The translations under genes and the position numbers were made by a program. A stretch of 64,000 nt of DNA from Escherichia coli (GTDB lineage Bacteria > Pseudomonadota > Gammaproteobacteria > Enterobacterales > Enterobacteriaceae), in assembly GCF_016026235.1 (NCBI RefSeq), contig NZ_CP065613.1, one strand, 5' to 3'. The notes beneath the pieces are model-generated. The model was given only the letters and a program-made list of their open reading frames with translations, made no database searches and was not told the origin of the DNA. Below are positions 10,818 to 28,633 of this stretch, piece after piece. How positions within the stretch are numbered: the first letter of the stretch is position 1; each line of letters starts with the position of its first letter.

Positions 10818-12264
10818 AATATTTCATCTCCCGAAACAGCCCGACCAGCTCATCTTCGGCACCATTGCGATTGTTCTTGTTCTCTCGACTGCTCATGCTA
10901 GGCAAAGGGAAGCCGTGCAGATCTCCCGGCAGACGAGCATCACGAATGGCACGGATCAGATTGTGCTCCAGCACATAGTTATCCATGGTTGCCAACTGCA
11001 CTACCTGCTGGCGGATGCGGCAGCGATAGGCCCAGATAAAGCACTTCTCGATGGCCAGTGACAGCCCTTGGCTGCCGAACTTGTCGATATAGAAGATCAG
11101 TGCGCAGTCGAACATGGCCCGCACATAACGATCCCCGGTGCGGTGGCGACGCTCGTAGCTGCCCAGGGTCGATAGCACCTTGCTGGCCATCGGTGTCAGC
11201 GTTTCGCCGAGCAGGGTGGCAGATTGCGCCTTGCCGGAATCAGACTCCTCGGCCACGATGGCGGCCACCCGCGTCTGGTAGTACTCGGCCATCTCGAAAA
11301 AGCGCCGACCATTGATGATCATCTGGTCGAGATGAAAGGGAAACGTCATGTACTGGCCGTCAATCTTGCGCTGGTACTGGCGGTTGTACTCATCGACAAA
11401 GTGGTGGGCGATGCGCAGCGACTCCACGTAAGGATAATGCCCTACCCGATCTAGGTTGACCCCCTTGAAGAGATCCACCTCCCCCTTGCCAAAGTAGCGG
11501 GCCGACTTGCCCTCGGCCCACTGGCGTACCCGATAGAGATAGAGGGCGAACAGATTGGCCAGCTCGTCGCTTGGCAGGCGCTCCCAATGGGCGACCGCCT
11601 CGGCCTTGAGATTGGCCTCATGACCGGCAAACTCGCGCAGGTGAAATGCCTTGAGCAGATCGTGAGGAGCCAGATCGCGCCCCCGGGCATTTTGCGAATC
11701 GAAGAACTGGAACGCCTCCGAGATATCCTGCAGTACAAAGCAGACCACCTGACAGCGGTTGAGCAGAAAGTCAATTTGCTGCTCGTCAAACTCAGGGCGG
11801 GCCACCAGCCGACGCAACTCCAGATAGTTGCGTCTGAGGTTGAACTCCGAATCCCGGCTGGGGAAGCGCTGGCGCTGCATAAACGCATCGATAGGTCCAC
11901 GCAAGACCTGCAATTGCTCACGCAGATCCTGACGTTGAAACCGGATACTCTTCTCTTTGCCACTGCGATTTTCGTTATCCAGCACCTCGATCAGCGCCTT
12001 GACGGTCAACATCAGGGTCAGGGTGCGTTGCTGACCATCGACGATATCAAGCATCTCGCCCTGCTCACTATCGGTGTGCTGATGAAACACCACCGAGCCC
12101 AGCCGGTAGGCGCTCTTGTCCTGATGGGTTGCCAAATCGGTAAAGAGATCCGAGATATTCTTGGAGCCCCAGCGGTAAGGTCGCTGATAGCTTGGGATGG
12201 CCAGTTGGGGAATGGCCAGCAACTGGCGTACCGACTGCACTTGATTATTAATGCTCTCCATCAT
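10810..12264 (-). CDS. DUF262 (ParB/GmrS-like NTPase) domain protein, 484 aa; upstream partner of a two-gene type IV restriction-like module
   Basis: '[12 protein letters not shown]' DGQQR motif and '[22 protein letters not shown]' typical of DUF262; overlaps the next gene's start (coupled). Confidence 0.8.
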
Positions 12265-12285: not shown

Positions 12286-12887
<602 letters not shown>

Positions 12888-20427: not shown

Positions 20428-20799
20428 GAATCATCCTGGTCTGAAGAAAAAGCTAGCGATGCAGGGCTTTGCATCTTAAAAATTTCGGTAAATGATACCG
20501 TAAGATGCCTCCCCTGACACGCCAATATCGCAGCATTCAGGTTTGCATCATCCCCGTAATATCGACATGAGACAGACTGACACAACCTGGCTCGTCACTC
20601 GCTAAAAACCAATTATCTTAGTAAGATAGCATCCATATTAGCCATGGTGTAAAACTGCCGTTGGGGTAATGATGATCCATATATCACCCGTTCTGGTGTG
20701 TGAAGCTGACATCATCCATAATCGGCAACGTTGATGCCCTTTGATAGTAATGATGACCGTCAATGTGATTCCCCTGCTGACTGGAGGTCTCCGGATAGT

Positions 20800-21966
20800 A
20801 TGAGTATTACCAACTGCGTTATCGGCCCACTTTACGATGAGCAAATAAAAAAAACACTTATGTATGCTGACCATAAATTCAAGCGGCTAATGAATACACG
20901 AATGTCGTTACTCGAACATTTATCACCCCACTATGACTTATCTTCCATGTTCAGCTATGAGTTGGAGGGAAGAGTTTTTCGGATTAAATTGATCAAGCCT
21001 GAGATTAAATTATCTCGCCAGCAGTTGATCTTCTCCTCACTCTTTTTAGAGCAAGATTTTCTAAAAGAATATAAAAAACACATCTCAAATACTCTACAAA
21101 AAACAATCAAACAGTGCATTAAAAAATACAAACAAAAAATCAAAATCGAGCCTTCTATTTTAGATTACATATCAGCGTCACCCCGCAATACGTCGAGTTA
21201 TGTATTACATGAGATAGTTTCTCAATGTGAACATTGCGATGAAATTCGCAATATTAAAAATGATATATTGCTTGATGAACTAACGTTGAATGGCCGGATC
21301 ACTAACATTTCAAAATACATTAAAAACAGTCAAGATAAAATCGTCGAACATATAGAGTTCTGCACTCATAAACTTGTCAATATAAGTCGTAAGAATCGTC
21401 ACATTTTCAACAGCACCACAATCTCTGGCAGAAAACCCAACATCACTGGTGTTTTACTTTGCCTTTCAGAATTGATAAGCAACCTGCATATTTACCCAAC
21501 TGAAATTAATAATATAAGCAATGCCATAATATTAAGCATTGTATACTCTGTACTTCAACATCTTCAATCCGGAAGAAAAACAGAAAAAACAAAAACCTCT
21601 CCAGCACTGGATTTCATCCCCACCATCATCGCACCTCATGTTTTCTACCTGGCGAAACGCGAAAAATCCTCTCAATATAAATACATTGAAAAAGAATATC
21701 TTCTCGGCCAGTTACTTATATTTTTGATGTATAAAACAGTTTACTACTCGATTCATAACATCAGGGTAAGCCGTAAGCATTTCTATAACGATATAAAACC
21801 AAAATTAATGATACTAAAAAAAGAAAGCTTATTAAGCACCAATTTCATGAAAAATCGAAGAGAGATTAGTGGTGAAGTCTTTGGTGATGTTGGTAGTATT
21901 GAGGCTGATTTTCGAGAAATCAGCACATTGATTCATCGGCGAAAGGCTCTGTTTATTTCCTTTTAA
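20800..21966 (+). CDS. Hypothetical protein, very AT-rich, no recognisable domain (~388 aa from the ATG at 20800; ORF extends to 20731)
   Basis: Long ORF in a strongly AT-rich stretch; Lys/Ile/Asn-rich; SD-like 'ggagg' upstream of the ATG at 20800. Confidence 0.5.
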   Translation: MSITNCVIGPLYDEQIKKTLMYADHKFKRLMNTRMSLLEHLSPHYDLSSMFSYELEGRVFRIKLIKPEIKLSRQQLIFSSLFLEQDFLKEYKKHISNTLQKTIKQCIKKYKQKIKIEPSILDYISASPRNTSSYVLHEIVSQCEHCDEIRNIKNDILLDELTLNGRITNISKYIKNSQDKIVEHIEFCTHKLVNISRKNRHIFNSTTISGRKPNITGVLLCLSELISNLHIYPTEINNISNAIILSIVYSVLQHLQSGRKTEKTKTSPALDFIPTIIAPHVFYLAKREKSSQYKYIEKEYLLGQLLIFLMYKTVYYSIHNIRVSRKHFYNDIKPKLMILKKESLLSTNFMKNRREISGEVFGDVGSIEADFREISTLIHRRKALFISF

Positions 21967-22368: not shown

Positions 22369-23499
22369 ATGTTCGAGAAAATGAAAAACAATGTAACCCG
22401 TATGCCGGGGAATTTAACAAAACTTAATCAATACCAAAAAGACATTGATCACCTGTCTAAACTATTTTCTGAACAGCAATTACTGGAACTAATGACGACT
22501 ACCGAATCCGATCAAATATTGCAAATGAAGCCTGCTGTAGATATTCTTCATGTACTATCTCCATCAGCATCTACTGCTAAGCATATCAATTTTTTTCAGC
22601 ACGTCCCAGTGCTCGAACAATGGTTAAAAAAGGAGTGCACTGCCTTTAATTTACTGGCAGTACATTTCTATTCACAGCAATCCCGTAAAAATGTAATTCC
22701 GAAAGAAATCTGTATGCTACTGGATGCATTTATTGAAACTGAACTTTCATCTGCGGTTAATGGTAATAATAATGCCGAACTCCTTTCTTGTTTTCAAAAC
22801 ACGCTGGATAAAATGTGCAATACACTAACATTTATAGACCACACAGTTACGGAACAATCAGGTCAAGTAGCAATGCTTGATTTCAGCGCAAAAATGCATG
22901 AATATACTGTTGAAATCAGGACCTTTTTGAAGTCTGAATACTGGCTAAACAAACTACCTAAGGATATTAACATTCCAGCCATTGACCTATCCTGGCTTGT
23001 GTTTTGTTACTTTTGCTCTGAATATCTTTTTGTATTTATTCAAACAACGCTCAATACAATGAAGGCAGGAAAAATCATTCGTGATAACTACCTTTATCAT
23101 CCTAAAATGATTGCATTGATCATTTTATCTATGCTGCCTTATGAAGTCATTCATAACGATGGATCACTGAATAAGTTTAAAACGCCTTTAACCAGCCCTG
23201 ATGAGTTCATAATCAAATCTATTTGCATTAAAGGTAAGCAAAACACTACAGGGCATAAAAAAGATATAGAACAATTGCTTCGTAAGACATATATCTATAT
23301 TGCATTACTCTTAAACCCTGAGTGGGCACCATCTTCCAAGGAGTTGATTTCCTTTTTATCAGGAAAGTCCTCAGTGATAAGTGGTTCACTCAACTTCCAG
23401 TCAACCTCCAGTGGTCTGGGTGTTCAAACAAACAATATAACTCTTCTTAAGAATGAGGTTTACTTCGAAAAAATAGCGAACAAGATCATGAAACTGTAG
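22369..23499 (+). CDS. Hypothetical protein, AT-rich, no recognisable domain, 376 aa
   Basis: Long ORF in the same AT-rich stretch; 'gaggataaaatt' SD precedes the ATG. Confidence 0.5.
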   Translation: MFEKMKNNVTRMPGNLTKLNQYQKDIDHLSKLFSEQQLLELMTTTESDQILQMKPAVDILHVLSPSASTAKHINFFQHVPVLEQWLKKECTAFNLLAVHFYSQQSRKNVIPKEICMLLDAFIETELSSAVNGNNNAELLSCFQNTLDKMCNTLTFIDHTVTEQSGQVAMLDFSAKMHEYTVEIRTFLKSEYWLNKLPKDINIPAIDLSWLVFCYFCSEYLFVFIQTTLNTMKAGKIIRDNYLYHPKMIALIILSMLPYEVIHNDGSLNKFKTPLTSPDEFIIKSICIKGKQNTTGHKKDIEQLLRKTYIYIALLLNPEWAPSSKELISFLSGKSSVISGSLNFQSTSSGLGVQTNNITLLKNEVYFEKIANKIMKL

Positions 23500-23642: not shown

Positions 23643-24779
23643 ATGCCTATTCTGGATCTGCGTTTCAGCAACAAATCAATTCACCAACTTCCACATCCCC
23701 TCACGGGTTGTCAGGAATACCGTGATATTCACTGCCAAAACCTGCGTGCTCTGGTGTATCCCAATCGGATCACGCTGGCCTTTCGTGCCACTATAAACAA
23801 TCAGCGTATATATGAAACCCTGGGTCAGTTCCCTCAGCTCTGCGTTGAGGATGCCCGTCAGCATGTGATGAAACTGCTTGCTGATAAAAATCGTCTTGCG
23901 GTTCAGTCCCGTCGATTCACTGTGGAACAGGCCATCAATGACCTGTGGCTACCGGATTTGCAGTTGTATAAAAAGAGTCCTCAGTCAGAGTTGTCAAAAC
24001 TCAACCTCTACGTTCGCCCGTTCTGGGGCAAGCGGCAACTTCGCGACATCACGGCAGGAGAACTAGAACAATATGCTGCTGGCTTACGGGAAAAATTACG
24101 TCCGTCAACAGTAAACCGTATCCTCGCAATATTGTCCAAAATATGCTCTCTGGCAGTACGTGCTGGATGGATCACACATTCCCCGATGTCACATGTCCGC
24201 TATCTGAAAGAAAATAACATTCGCTATCGCACACTGTCAGCGACAGAAATCCCGCGCTTTATTGACGCGGCAACAGCGCTGCAAACACCGGCAGCTGATT
24301 CTATATTGCTTGCTCTTTATACGGGGATGCGTATTGGTGAGGTATGTACCCTGAAATGGGAGTACTGGCACCCGGATATGCATCAACTCATACTGCCTGA
24401 TACAAAGTCCGGACACCCTTTCACCTGCCCACTTGCACCTCCAGCCATTGCAGTTGTCCAGTGCCAGCAGGACCTGATGCTCAGCAAAACTTACATTTTT
24501 CCACAACTAACCGACAATGCCCGCCCTCTGGCATATCCGCGTGCAACCTTTGCCCGTATTTGCCGGGATGCCGACATTGATAACCTGCGGATGCATGACC
24601 TGCGCCGTACCTTTGCCACCCGGGTACTACAGGCGACCGGGGATATTGCAATCGCTTCCCATCTGCTAAATCACCATTCACTCACGGCGACCCGTCGCTA
24701 CGCTTTTCACAATGCAGCGACATCACACGCAGTGGTTTCTCAGGTCATAGAAAGTTATGACACAAAAATGAACCTATGA
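23643..24779 (+). CDS. Tyrosine recombinase / phage-type integrase (second integrase of the island), 378 aa
   Basis: Catalytic-domain pattern 'LYTGMRIGEV...MHDLRRTFATR...LNHHSLTATRRYA' (R..H-x-x-R..Y); SD 'aggaga' before the ATG. Confidence 0.8.
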   Translation: MPILDLRFSNKSIHQLPHPLTGCQEYRDIHCQNLRALVYPNRITLAFRATINNQRIYETLGQFPQLCVEDARQHVMKLLADKNRLAVQSRRFTVEQAINDLWLPDLQLYKKSPQSELSKLNLYVRPFWGKRQLRDITAGELEQYAAGLREKLRPSTVNRILAILSKICSLAVRAGWITHSPMSHVRYLKENNIRYRTLSATEIPRFIDAATALQTPAADSILLALYTGMRIGEVCTLKWEYWHPDMHQLILPDTKSGHPFTCPLAPPAIAVVQCQQDLMLSKTYIFPQLTDNARPLAYPRATFARICRDADIDNLRMHDLRRTFATRVLQATGDIAIASHLLNHHSLTATRRYAFHNAATSHAVVSQVIESYDTKMNL

Positions 24780-24921: not shown

Positions 24922-25050
24922 ATGTATTTAACCATTAAGCAGTTCGCAGAAAGATTTAATCTTTCTGCATCCACGGTTGCGTCAGATATATCGCGCAACC
25001 CCGGAAAACTCCCGCCCTTCATCAGAATTGGGCGGGCTATACGATTCTCT
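24922..25050 (+). pseudogene. AlpA-like helix-turn-helix regulator/excisionase gene truncated by IS1
   Basis: 'MYLTIKQFAERFNLSASTVASDISRNPGKLPPFIRIGRAIRF' resembles AlpA-family phage regulators; reading frame runs into the IS1 terminal repeat at 25051. Confidence 0.55.
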
Positions 25051-25065
25051 GGTAATGACTCCAAC

Positions 25066-25569
25066 TTACTGATAGTGTTTTATGTTCAGATAATGCCCGA
25101 TGACCTTGTCATGCAGCTCCACCGATTTTGAGAACGACAGTGACTTCCGTCCCAGCCTTGCCAGATGTTGTCTCAGATTCAGATTATGTCGCTCAATGCG
25201 CTGAGTGTAACGCTTGCTGATAACGTGCAGCTTTCCCTTCAGGCGTGATTCATACAGCGGCCAGCCATCCGTCATCCATACCACGACCTCAAAGGCCGAC
25301 AGCAGGCTCAGAAGACGCTCCAGTGTGGCCAGAGTGCGTTCACCGAAGACGTGCGCCACAACCGTCCTCCGTATCCTGTCATACGCGTAAAACAGCCAGC
25401 GCTGACGTGATTTAGCACCGACGTAGCCCCACTGTTCGTCCATTTCAGCGCAGACAATCACATCACTGCCCGGTTGTATGCGCGAGGTTACCGACTGCGG
25501 CCTGAGTTTTTTAAGTGACGTAAAACCGTGTTGAGGCCAACGCCCATAATGCGTGCACTGGCGCGACAT
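25066..25569 (-). CDS. insB: IS1 InsB frame (variant isoform)
   Basis: -1 frame overlapping insA within the IS1. Confidence 0.85.
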
Positions 25570-25763
25570 CCGACGCCATTCATGGCCATATCAATGATTT
25601 TCTGGTGCGTACCGGGCTGAGAGGCGGTGTAAGTGAACTGTAGTTGCCATGTTTTACGGCAATGAGAGCAGAGATAGCGCTGATGTCCGGCAGTGCTTTT
25701 GCCGTTACGCACCACGCCTTCAGTAGCGGAGCAGGAAGGACATCTGATGGAAATGGAAGCCAC
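25488..25763 (-). CDS. insA: IS1 InsA (variant isoform)
   Basis: '[37 protein letters not shown]...'. Confidence 0.9.
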
Positions 25764-25936
25764 GCAAGCACCTTAAAATCACCATCATACACTAAATCAG
25801 TAAGTTGGCAGCATTACCCATCTTCAAATGGGAGTACCAGCTCTGTTTTCAACAGACTCATTACTGACTCCGGAAGAAGGAGCGACGGCAGGTCTTGCCA
25901 GTTCGAGACAAATTTCATTGAATAATCCTCATAAAC

Positions 25937-25972
25937 AAAAAACCCGATACGATTAACGTATCGGGGTTTTTA
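25937..25972. terminator. Rho-independent terminator-like hairpin (aaaaaacccgatacg-attaa-cgtatcggggttttt), bidirectional
   Basis: Perfect 10-bp stem flanked by A-run and T-run. Confidence 0.7.
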
Positions 25973-26013: not shown

Positions 26014-26256
26014 TTAAATTCTTTCATAATACCCACAGTCCATACAGATAAGCACTGGCGCATTATTTCTTTCACACTGTTCAAGGAATCCAAATAGTTT
26101 TTTAATAGCCTTAATAATTTCTTTCAGTATTTCAGGTAAAAACTCCAGGCTAATATACCCAGAGCGTTTATTATCGGTTATCGATGGCAGTTTTCCTGCT
26201 GAACTTATCAATGTATTACAACTGCCACACTGTGGGCATTTTAAATGCATCCTCAT
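26014..26256 (-). CDS. Small zinc-ribbon protein (two CxxC pairs), 80 aa, AT-rich
   Basis: 'CPQCGSC' near the N-terminus and 'CMDCGYY' near the C-terminus. Confidence 0.45.
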   Translation of the reverse strand: MRMHLKCPQCGSCNTLISSAGKLPSITDNKRSGYISLEFLPEILKEIIKAIKKLFGFLEQCERNNAPVLICMDCGYYERI

Positions 26257-26286
26257 TCTCCATATTTATAGTTTGCTAAAAAGTAG

Positions 26287-27486
26287 TCACATCTGCTTCG
26301 TAGCCGCAGTATTCAGAAGCAGGTCAGTCACTCCCTGCCCTGTCTGACGCATACGTTCCGGTGTTAATTTCGCGTAACGTTCTGTACTCTGAATACTGGC
26401 ATGCGCCAGTTGGGCTTTAACGTCATACAGGCTGAATTGACCACTCGAAACCAGTAAAGAGGCAACAGAATGACGTGTGGTGTGAAAACAGACTTCATTC
26501 TTGTCTATACCGCACTGTGCCAGTATTTTTTCATATGCCCATCGGGGTTCCGATATCGGTTTTCCATTATCCTTAATGGCGAACAGATACGGATTACTGC
26601 CAACTCGTGGGATAGCATCAATAATCGATAATGCGGCATCGCTTAGATATACCGTCCGACTGCGACCATTTTTTGTATAAGGAATGAACAGAGTACGATT
26701 GGCCCGGTCGATATGTTCATGCCTGACATTAAGCATTTCTGATTTGCGTGTACCGGTTAACAACAACATGGCTATCAATCCCCCGGCAGCTTTGTTGGGA
26801 TATTGGGTAGCAGCGTCAAGAATGCGCCTGATCTCATCAGCATCAAAAAAGCGCGTCCGCTGATTATTCTCTTTCAGTAAAGGGATCTTATCGGCTTCAT
26901 TCTTTTCCAGCACATCCTGTCGCAACGCATAACGCCCCATCGTTTTCAGAATAGCAAGGGCTCTGTTACAGGTAGACGGCGCATATTGCTGCCCGTGAAT
27001 ACGCCCCTCCAGCATGTCAAACAGCACCTGTTGTATCTCTCTGGCCCTGAGATCGCAGTAACGTATCTTTCCCAGACGAGGTTCAATGTATTGCGTGAAA
27101 CGCTGAACATCCTTATCCCAGGACTTTTTATGGCGTTTGATGAACGGAACATAGGTCTGGTGAAAAAACTCACTAAGTGTTGGCATCGCACGATAATTAT
27201 CGCGTTCTGCTTTAGGGTCATTTCCCAGTGCAATCGCCTCCTTATGACGGCGAGCTATCTGGCGAGCTGTCCCCACATCAATTTCAGGGAATCTGCCAAT
27301 ACTGATACTTTTTTTGGTACCGTGGAATGTGTAGCGCAGGAGGAAACGTTTGTTACCCGTTCGACCTGAGAGACATTTGAGGCCAATAACTTCGGTATCA
27401 GATACCTCAAGCTCTGTAGATCTGGTATCTGTGTTTGCCGGAAGGGCTTTGATGGATGAATTGGTGAATCGGAAGGATTTTTGCAT
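26287..27486 (-). CDS. int: P4-type tyrosine integrase (tRNA-proximal integrase of the island); probable start at the Met at 27486, ORF extends to 27516
   Basis: 'LLLTGTRKSEMLNVRHEHI' and 'CFHTTRHSVASLL...STERYAKL' catalytic motifs; N-terminal 'FTNSSIKALP' arm-binding region; 'gaggat' SD before the ATG at 27486. Confidence 0.85.
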   Translation of the reverse strand: MQKSFRFTNSSIKALPANTDTRSTELEVSDTEVIGLKCLSGRTGNKRFLLRYTFHGTKKSISIGRFPEIDVGTARQIARRHKEAIALGNDPKAERDNYRAMPTLSEFFHQTYVPFIKRHKKSWDKDVQRFTQYIEPRLGKIRYCDLRAREIQQVLFDMLEGRIHGQQYAPSTCNRALAILKTMGRYALRQDVLEKNEADKIPLLKENNQRTRFFDADEIRRILDAATQYPNKAAGGLIAMLLLTGTRKSEMLNVRHEHIDRANRTLFIPYTKNGRSRTVYLSDAALSIIDAIPRVGSNPYLFAIKDNGKPISEPRWAYEKILAQCGIDKNEVCFHTTRHSVASLLVSSGQFSLYDVKAQLAHASIQSTERYAKLTPERMRQTGQGVTDLLLNTAATKQM

Positions 27487-27566
27487 ATTTATCCTCATGT
27501 ATCTGATTGATATCATGGAGATAATATATATCTGAAGGTGTTTTTATTACGGGGCAGGATTGAAGA

Positions 27567-28307
27567 ATGGAAAAGCTATTAGACGCGTACAAACGGATAT
27601 TACAGGAAGTTGACGCCCAGTCATTTAACCTGAATGAGGATAAATACTCAGGCGTCTTTTTACCCGTGCCCTTTGAAGAATACTGGCACTCACCGGTAAA
27701 AATCATACTGGTTGGACGTGAAACCGCTGGCTGGAATACTCTGAATGGTAAGAACACGATATCACGGGTGCTGGGACTTATACCTGACGTCACCATCGGG
27801 CAGGTGGTTGGAGAGGCTGTAGATCGTTACAGGAATCATCTTCCGGTACAAAATGATGGCACCACGAACCTCAAATCACGTAGCCGCTTCACGCAGTATC
27901 ATTTCCGGCTGGCCCGGGAGCTTAATATTCCTCCTCAGGCTATCGTGTATGCCAATCTACTGGCGTGGGATTACGACGGACTGACCCCTCTCAATCGCCC
28001 TCAAAATGAAGTGCAGGAAGTTATATTAGCCTCGCTGAAGCTGCTGGCGGTACAAATTAAACACCTTGAGCCTGATTTCATCATCTTTGCATCCGGAGCC
28101 CGGAGAACAGACTACATCATAAAACAGGTGCTTACTGAGCTGGGCGGCTATGAGACTTCTGCAGTCATTCCGGGGAAGCTATGGGAGTTCAAAACAGGTA
28201 ATGCAATCTGTTTCAGAATTGCCCATCCACGGGCTATGCGCGGACACCAGAAGTACAGAGATGAGGTGATTGCACGAATTAAGCAACTTTGTACTCAGGG
28301 TGGCTAG
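27567..28307 (+). CDS. Hypothetical protein, 246 aa; weak resemblance to a uracil-DNA-glycosylase-like fold
   Basis: ORF between the integrase and the tRNA; 'KIILVGRETAGW' and 'IAHPRAMRGH' loosely resemble UDG motifs A and B. Confidence 0.5.
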   Translation: MEKLLDAYKRILQEVDAQSFNLNEDKYSGVFLPVPFEEYWHSPVKIILVGRETAGWNTLNGKNTISRVLGLIPDVTIGQVVGEAVDRYRNHLPVQNDGTTNLKSRSRFTQYHFRLARELNIPPQAIVYANLLAWDYDGLTPLNRPQNEVQEVILASLKLLAVQIKHLEPDFIIFASGARRTDYIIKQVLTELGGYETSAVIPGKLWEFKTGNAICFRIAHPRAMRGHQKYRDEVIARIKQLCTQGG

Positions 28308-28491
28308 AGCATTACAGCTTGCTCAGCGGCCCCCTTCCCGGAAGCGTACCGGAAAACAGGCAAAGCGGCCTGGTTCTCTATGCTGGAAGCGACACGTTCG
28401 ATTCGGCATTGCCAGGCTGAAGATTGCAGCTCATCGCACCCCGTGAGCACAGGATATGCACAGGACATGAATTTCAGGCACAAAAAAACCA

Positions 28492-28520
28492 CCCGGAGGT
28501 GGTTTCACGACACTGCTTAT
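28492..28520 (-). terminator. Rho-independent terminator of the glyW-cysT-leuZ tRNA operon
   Basis: Minus-strand hairpin 'gaaaccacctccgggtggttt' followed by a T-run, directly 3' of tRNA-Leu. Confidence 0.8.
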
Positions 28521-28546
28521 TGCTTTGATTATTCTTGTCTTTCCCA

Positions 28547-28633
28547 TGGTACCCGGAGCGGGACTTGAACCCGCACAGCGCGAACGCCGAGGGATTTTAA
28601 ATCCCTTGTGTCTACCGATTCCACCATCCGGGC
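28547..28633 (-). tRNA. leuZ: tRNA-Leu (anticodon UAA), 87 nt
   Basis: Minus-strand sequence gcccggatggtggaatcggtagacacaagggattTAAaatccc...gggtacca; long variable arm and CCA end. Confidence 0.95.

Follow-up and report, generated by a model that had tools for sequence, protein, structure and literature searches.

A small gene downstream of the IntSXT integrase in Escherichia coli pipolins encodes a predicted split zinc-ribbon protein

We analysed a stretch of 64,000 nucleotides from Escherichia coli (contig NZ_CP065613.1 of assembly GCF_016026235.1), called the window below, and found in it a small minus-strand gene that we hold with high confidence to be real, conserved and embedded in an integrase operon. 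Judged from its distribution and setting, it would be a fixed core gene of the pipolins of this species and not variable cargo. Its product is modelled as a three-stranded Cys4 zinc ribbon split by an insertion of about 55 residues, which consists of a variable loop and a long helix. We tentatively favour a role for this protein as a partner subunit of element-encoded enzymes that cut and rejoin DNA.

The gene was noticed in a first-pass annotation as an AT-rich reading frame with two CxxC pairs, lying between an IS1 element and a P4-type integrase. We recover exactly this arrangement, with an 80-codon open reading frame on the minus strand at 26014..26256 (translation MRMHLKCPQCGSC...ICMDCGYYERI), IS1 at 25051..25818 and the integrase at 26287..27516. 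The GC content of the frame is 35.4%, below that of the integrase (46.4%) and of the window as a whole (49.4%), and from base composition alone we estimate the chance of an 80-codon open frame at 35% GC to be about 0.003 per frame. The product had been given as 80 aa, which holds for the number of codons but probably not for the protein, as translation likely begins at the second in-frame ATG (26250), giving a 78-aa Cys4 zinc-ribbon protein (26014..26250, minus strand, stop codon TAA at 26014-26016). This start is preferred because a Shine-Dalgarno GGAG (26258..26261, minus strand) lies 7 nt upstream of it, because the database proteins are 78 aa long and because the family consensus starts M-x-L-x-C. 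The same GGAG is kept in the divergent alleles. The other in-frame ATG, at 26254-26256 on the minus strand, would yield the 80-aa form if used.

Complete E. coli genomes hold two deeply diverged allele classes of the gene, the window type and an 83-aa form that carries a 5-codon (15-nt) in-frame insertion relative to it; a 4-nt deletion at the stop codon still gives an end in ERI followed by a stop, and the frame is kept. Comparison of the window allele with four divergent alleles, all taken from finished genomes, gives dN/dS values of 0.11-0.17 in the coding frame versus 1.1-6.7 in the other two frames (our earlier dN/dS estimates were noisier). Among eight copies of the window-type class that were inspected, four of the seven variable sites are synonymous and none of the copies is interrupted, with seven reaching the stop codon and the eighth (locus L015) stopping at the edge of the locus. 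The allele is intact in each of 12 copies inspected from complete genomes or viral contigs, and of 235 complete genomes, 232 have an intact A6 run in the gene.

These results bear directly on the possibility that there is no functional gene here, so that the frame would be a chance opening in the AT-rich 3' UTR of the integrase or a decaying pseudogene. Such a reading would agree with the lack of any RefSeq/PGAP call in 58 of 60 sampled genomes, with the frameshifted and truncated versions found in a large protein database, and with the loss of the second cysteine in one low-coverage metagenome contig (L007). However, it is at odds with the strong and frame-specific purifying selection, with the intact state of all 12 inspected copies, and with the retention of the four cysteines in distant representatives at 28-51% identity. 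Decay in particular had been raised by frameshifted 79-aa database proteins and was rejected, as the A5 frameshift is seen in 1 of the 235 complete genomes. A non-coding RNA was likewise considered and dropped, with no Rfam family above threshold in the region. We therefore take the reading as a spurious ORF to be effectively excluded. A separate observation is a terminator-like hairpin with a T-run inside the frame, at 26142-26165 on the minus strand (codons ~29-37), which is the site of the 15-nt insertion of the other allele class; its presence there is probably due to chance.

The window-type allele is present in 229-246 complete E. coli genomes and the divergent allele in about 100 more, the latter being a count estimated from identity and length bands with four loci read. 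With both classes taken together, the gene is estimated to occur in about 350 of the 356 complete E. coli genomes that carry the integrase, and in ~6% of complete E. coli genomes overall. Some 90 genomes with the neighbouring core genes at first seemed to lack the small gene; this was rejected, since the divergent allele had escaped megablast. The expectation that a protein of this kind would be rarely annotated is borne out, as the 58 of 60 uncalled genomes come from an even sample of RefSeq (~97%). In one of the two sampled genomes with a call at the locus (E. coli EF7-18-51, NZ_CP063487.1; locus L035, 1801-1968), PGAP predicts a 55-aa fragment whose initiator methionine results from an I24M substitution and which thereby lacks the first CxxC knuckle. 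The gene is an example of a real small gene that is dropped by annotation pipelines. A tighter-alignment scan of wider collections gave 1 marginal locus in species-representative genomes, 1 in viral contigs and 9 in metagenomes, and no family match in the GenBank phage collection.

The integrase upstream is IntSXT, a P4/SXT-type tyrosine integrase with Arm-DNA-bind_3 and Phage_integrase domains, encoded on the minus strand (its RefSeq start corresponds to 27486). In the window 30-36 nt separate its stop codon from the small gene downstream, depending on which ATG is used, and the spacer is 15 nt in L003 and 31 nt in L007. Scans of the region from the integrase to the frame gave no terminator-like site and no minus-strand sigma-70-like promoter, although weak or non-sigma-70 promoters escape a consensus scan of this type. 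In L017 and L037, two divergent loci with a 40%-identical small protein, the ATG of the small gene overlaps the stop codon of the integrase (ATGA). As far as sequence signals go, the layout establishes the integrase gene as the first cistron and the small gene as the second and last cistron of the same operon, and the two are probably translationally coupled. The order integrase, small ORF, ~125-aa gene, ~170-aa gene and DUF2787 gene is kept in L003, L007, L017 and L037; piPolB was not seen on the contigs of L017 and L037, which are short.

A strong bidirectional terminator hairpin had been described as preceding the gene. The hairpin is real and has T-runs on both strands, but its place relative to the gene is the reverse: for a minus-strand gene this position is on the 3' side, and we read the hairpin as the terminator of the transcript of the integrase and the small gene and not as an upstream element. 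It occupies 25933..25965 on the minus strand, where a 9-bp stem (25943-25965) leads into UUUUUUGUUU (25933-25942). The minus-strand structure has a predicted energy of -21 kcal/mol (z = -3.6), with none of 200 shuffled sequences as stable, and it is kept in both allele classes (L003, L007 and L044-L047).

Judged by its terminal repeats and gene content, the first part of the window (1-28602) is a pipolin that integrated at tRNA-Leu and lost piPolB by an IS1-linked deletion. The left end is a direct repeat (attL, 1..114) that is 96.5% identical over 114 bp to attR (28491..28602), which overlaps tRNA-Leu(taa) at 28547-28633 on the minus strand; this tRNA gene adjoins pgsA and uvrC. The IS1 copy (768 bp, minus strand, exact ends) fills the place of about 7.8 kb of an intact pipolin and, compared with strain S30, replaces positions 4169-12000 of the S30 locus. 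In S30 this one island contains the second integrase, the excisionase, an 866-aa protein, a WYL regulator, DUF726, DUF2787, the 177-aa and 123-aa orphans and, across a gap, the IntSXT integrase. The 866-aa protein has a weak DNA_pol_B_2 match and is named a type-B DNA polymerase in other RefSeq records. The IS1 event removed the 3' end of the excisionase gene, a 212-aa gene, piPolB, WYL, DUF726, DUF2787, the 177-aa gene and the 123-aa gene beyond codon 33. What is left in the window is IntP2 (23643-24779), the first 46 codons of the excisionase (24922-25059), the first 33 codons of the 123-aa core orphan (25820..25918, minus strand, cut off by IS1), IntSXT and the small gene. The small gene persists amid such decay elsewhere as well, for example next to an IS21-disrupted integrase in L034.

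This picture fits what has been reported of enterobacterial pipolins. PMC11551731 places the core at tRNA-Leu and lists IntSXT, DUF2787, WYL and "several orphan proteins"; it also describes core deletions such as loss of piPolB as common, and an AlpA-like excisionase that adjoins the second integrase, IntP2. The small gene has its place in this known core, directly between IntSXT on one side and the two orphan genes and DUF2787 on the other, and a module with an 86%-identical integrase keeps the gene order even though its small protein is 40% identical. The copy of the element in the window differs in having lost piPolB to the IS1 deletion. An E. coli survey (PMC7385651) saw no episomal pipolin and judged excision to be either negligible or below detection in standard growth conditions. 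Within their searchable text, neither PMC11551731 nor PMC7385651 singles out a zinc ribbon or a small ORF after the integrase.

Of the genes in its module, the small gene evolves fastest. Between the window-type module and L017, the small protein is 39.7% identical and the 123-aa orphan 43%, followed by 62% for both the 177-aa orphan and DUF2787 and 86.5% for the integrase. L003 matches the S30 type at 98-100% identity apart from a sharply bounded patch of about 300 bp with 62-68% identity. By comparison with L003, L007 and L044-L047, the patch corresponds to about 26140-26430 of the window. It takes in the final integrase codons, the spacer and the 5' third of the small gene, and sets apart the two allele classes of E. 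coli, of about 250 and about 100 genomes. Because synonymous divergence inside the patch is saturated while its flanks are near-identical, the patch was brought in by recombination instead of evolving in place. The integrase protein is invariant up to GQGVTDLL, and its variation is confined to the last 8-15 residues.

To look at the protein family more widely, a profile search was run against 1.8 billion representatives, which gave 49 matches, 31 of them full-length representatives of 76-102 aa with 28-69% identity to the window protein. In an alignment of 32 sequences (78-aa numbering) C5, C8 and C72 are invariant and C69 is at least 90% conserved, and about 30 distant representatives at 28-51% identity keep both CxxC pairs. 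The two E. coli allele classes likewise retain all four cysteines, L044-L047 included. Conservation in homologous islands had been put forward as the check on the two cysteine pairs, and both the frame and the pairs are kept there; the third cysteine of the quoted motif, CPQCGSC, does not share in this. C11 and C59 are not conserved, and the third cysteine of CPQCGSC and the cysteine of EQCERNN are both arginine in the other allele class. The sole copy that lacks a ligand cysteine is L007, which we set aside as an outlier, being a metagenome contig at 1.5x coverage whose change is not shared by four finished genomes of the same class, all of which keep CPKC. The family pattern opens with M-x-L-x-C-x-x-C-G-S-x-N-T, passes through a variable polar loop to G-x-I-x-P and a helix of about 20-27 residues, and closes with K-E-K-N and v-v-C-k-D-C-G-y-W/Y-E-k.

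An AlphaFold2 model built from the 32-sequence alignment (mean pLDDT 66.7) has a strand at residues 13-15, a helix at 35-61 and two further strands at 66-69 and 75-77, which is the basis for the split ribbon proposed above. Residues 21-28 of the loop are of low confidence in the model and the variable loop is probably disordered. Zinc binding is predicted from the cysteine pattern. The central helix has a Kyte-Doolittle hydropathy above 1.6, the threshold for a membrane segment, in most relatives and often above 2; that of the window protein is amphipathic, with a hydropathy of 0.85 and five charged residues. A membrane-spanning helix is argued against because both of its flanks are positively charged and because the N- and C-terminal strands are paired in the model. 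The helix would more plausibly offer a binding surface, for another copy of the protein, a partner or the surface of a membrane. Most family members carry a net charge between +1 and +7.

The family already has a name, though not a function. The window protein matches phrog_32727, a family without annotation in PHROGs v4, over its full length (E = 9.8e-58, residues 3-80 on profile positions 1-78 of 78), as do 32 of 32 family representatives. Pfam and NCBIfam gave sub-threshold generic zinc-ribbon matches at best, the clearest being PF08274, Zn_Ribbon_YjdM, at 20.3 bits (E = 5e-4) against a gathering cut-off of 30.8; four of 32 relatives match this family, all weakly. PADLOC-DB gave no match to a defence-system model at E <= 0.01, a profile search of the PDB gave nothing significant (best E = 0.013), and neither did Foldseek (best E = 1.6 in the PDB and 0.04 in BFVD). 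The small protein shares with classical zinc ribbons (YjdM/PhnA, TFIIB, TFIIS/Rpb9) the two CxxC knuckles and, in the model, three short strands, and Rpb9/TFIIS-type ribbons are its best fold matches, with Foldseek E values of at least 0.04. The classical ribbons lack its loop-plus-helix insertion, however, which is apparent when residues 6-76 of the small protein align to positions 4-27 of the 30 in the YjdM ribbon. Lar/RalR of the Rac prophage (PF14354) is likewise a small, prophage-encoded Cys4 zinc ribbon, and three family members match it weakly (best E = 0.0027), whereas the window protein reaches 12.8 bits versus a cut-off of 28.6. To our knowledge, Lar has no long helical insertion.

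The neighbourhoods of distant relatives are varied. Adjacency to an integrase is recurrent but not universal, being found in four of about eleven subfamilies. In L013 and L032 the member lies directly downstream of a tyrosine integrase of a different class (L013 is a prophage contig with a lysozyme gene), and in L008-L010 and L028 it is convergent with a P4-type integrase. A 122-aa neighbour in L008 was considered as a homologue of the 123-aa pipolin orphan, and no homology was detected. In three distant subfamilies a gene for a GIY-YIG nuclease (GIY_YIG_2, about 130-160 aa) lies 1-3 nt from the member; the nuclease is a stand-alone one, encoded downstream in L025 (1135-1563) and L027 (5256-5651) and upstream in the P0059 contig (1520-2011). 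This spacing suggests that the zinc-ribbon gene and the GIY-YIG gene form a two-gene unit. Other members are in defence-type surroundings, with a type I R subunit, a DUF2787 fragment, an M78 peptidase and DUF4411, an N6 methylase or cpYpsA nearby, and one is in a phage early-like region. Finally, in five Enterobacter prophages the member directly follows the holin, endolysin and spanins, with differing genes downstream. This lysis-cassette form has 91 aa and a TM-like central helix (L039-L043, 5001-5276; L023, 6995-7270), and its cassette includes a GH19 endolysin and a spanin pair. NZ_CP083847.1, another carrier of this form, was deposited as a non-mobilizable plasmid; it encodes a holin, an endolysin, a terminase and a prohead protease and looks like a phage genome.

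The reading as a partner subunit of DNA-cutting and rejoining enzymes is favoured, if only tentatively, because the gene is tightly coupled to two integrase classes and to GIY-YIG nucleases and because of its fixed status in the pipolin core. In such a role the zinc ribbon would serve as a rigid clasp that displays the helix as a binding surface, the protein would in pipolins be made together with IntSXT, and its contact with the integrase would modulate integration or excision by way of assembly, activity or direction. This mode would differ from that of the classical DNA-bending Xis proteins. Searches of Pfam, NCBIfam, PADLOC and the PDB and with Foldseek matched it to no characterised protein with significance, whether by sequence or by fold. 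Several points weigh against a partner subunit: a number of subfamilies have no integrase or nuclease partner, the 40% identity beside 86% for the integrase would be unusual for the partner of a highly conserved enzyme, and a hydrophobic helix of 20 residues would suit membrane binding at least as well. We are doubtful about a more ambitious version, in which the protein founds a new class of zinc-ribbon cofactors for the DNA enzymes of mobile elements, as a switch or direction partner of IntSXT in pipolins and in the service of GIY-YIG nucleases elsewhere. The main rival of the partner-subunit reading is that of a moron-type accessory gene, for a small peripheral-membrane or self-associating protein that would serve the element or its host, for instance in superinfection exclusion, defence or anti-defence, or the modulation of lysis, and would merely occupy a permissive junction beside the integrase. 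We consider this a serious possibility, even if on the unlikely side. It would account well for the low GC content next to the integrase (35% vs 46%), the gene's own Shine-Dalgarno sequence and terminator, and a helix hydropathy above 1.6 in most members with a helix that often ends in an aromatic residue and a lysine. The fixed slot at the end of the lysis cassette in the five Enterobacter prophages, with variable genes downstream, would fit it too, as would the defence-island members with type I R-M, M78 peptidase and DUF4411, or cpYpsA as neighbours, and the rapid evolution of the gene with exchange of a diverged ~300-bp patch between otherwise near-identical pipolins. On the other hand, no promoter-like site of its own appeared in the scan, the translational coupling in diverged modules would be unusual for a gene expressed independently of recombination, and the gene is a fixed part of the pipolin core where variable cargo would be expected. 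Additionally, the helix of the window protein is charged and amphipathic, the positive flanks and paired terminal strands make a membrane-spanning topology unlikely, and PADLOC is without a match.

The first-pass annotation had proposed a regulator or an excision cofactor. The position in the integrase operon and the coupling lend this some support, whereas the lack of an Xis- or AlpA-type match and the existence of integrase-free relatives do not, and the role is not established. In its strict form the proposal would make the protein a dedicated excisionase, that is a recombination directionality factor that binds and bends DNA and is dedicated to the integrase next to it. Like the Xis, AlpA and Vis factors it is small, mostly basic, adjacent to a tyrosine integrase and co-transcribed with it, and IntSXT has no other assigned directionality factor, the known pipolin excisionase being beside IntP2. 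Directionality factors are also structurally heterogeneous and may be scavenged proteins, a point demonstrated with serine integrases (PMC11795197). However, the Xis, AlpA and Vis factors have a winged helix in place of the predicted zinc ribbon and helix of the small protein, and searches of Pfam and NCBIfam gave no similarity to these families. The same element holds a separate excisionase remnant (24922-25059), constitutive co-translation with the integrase would destabilise integration, and our literature search gave no zinc-ribbon directionality factor or cofactor of a tyrosine integrase. Because members also lie near other integrases, GIY-YIG nucleases, defence islands and lysis cassettes, with no integrase near many of them, we find a dedicated excisionase improbable.

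The value of these findings depends in part on which reading is right. If the small protein did found a new class of cofactors, this may explain why pipolin excision goes unseen under standard conditions, and a strongly conserved gene coupled to the main integrase, as second cistron of its operon, is in any case a cheap candidate to pursue for the question of pipolin integration and excision. If it is merely an accessory protein, the practical gain would be better annotation only. Either way the family is an uncharacterised one of split zinc ribbons that is spread over phages, prophages and defence islands. The ordinary zinc-ribbon fold and the unnamed PHROG family were already known; the helical insertion that splits the ribbon, the overlooked status in the pipolin core and the coupling to the integrase were not found in the sources as far as these are searchable.

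A few minor features of the element were noted along the way. Between the integrase and tRNA-Leu, a 246-aa gene on the plus strand (27567-28307) matches phrog_29550 (E = 7e-177) and gave nothing in Pfam, NCBIfam, PADLOC or a PDB sequence search; it is a pseudogene in L033 and L035. Upstream of IntP2 are two large plus-strand ORFs of 376 aa (22369-23499, with no Pfam or PADLOC match) and 411 aa (20731-21966), which in S30 are CDSs labelled as hypothetical proteins. The large minus-strand reading frames at 12.9-20.4 kb resemble, as judged by size and order, genes annotated in strain 21AR0133 (L002) for an M48 peptidase, type I R-M and a YecA-like protein. Two further IS1-related copies lie inside the island at 4342-5109 and 12512-12887, one full length and one partial, and each is about 91% identical to the IS1 at 25051-25818.
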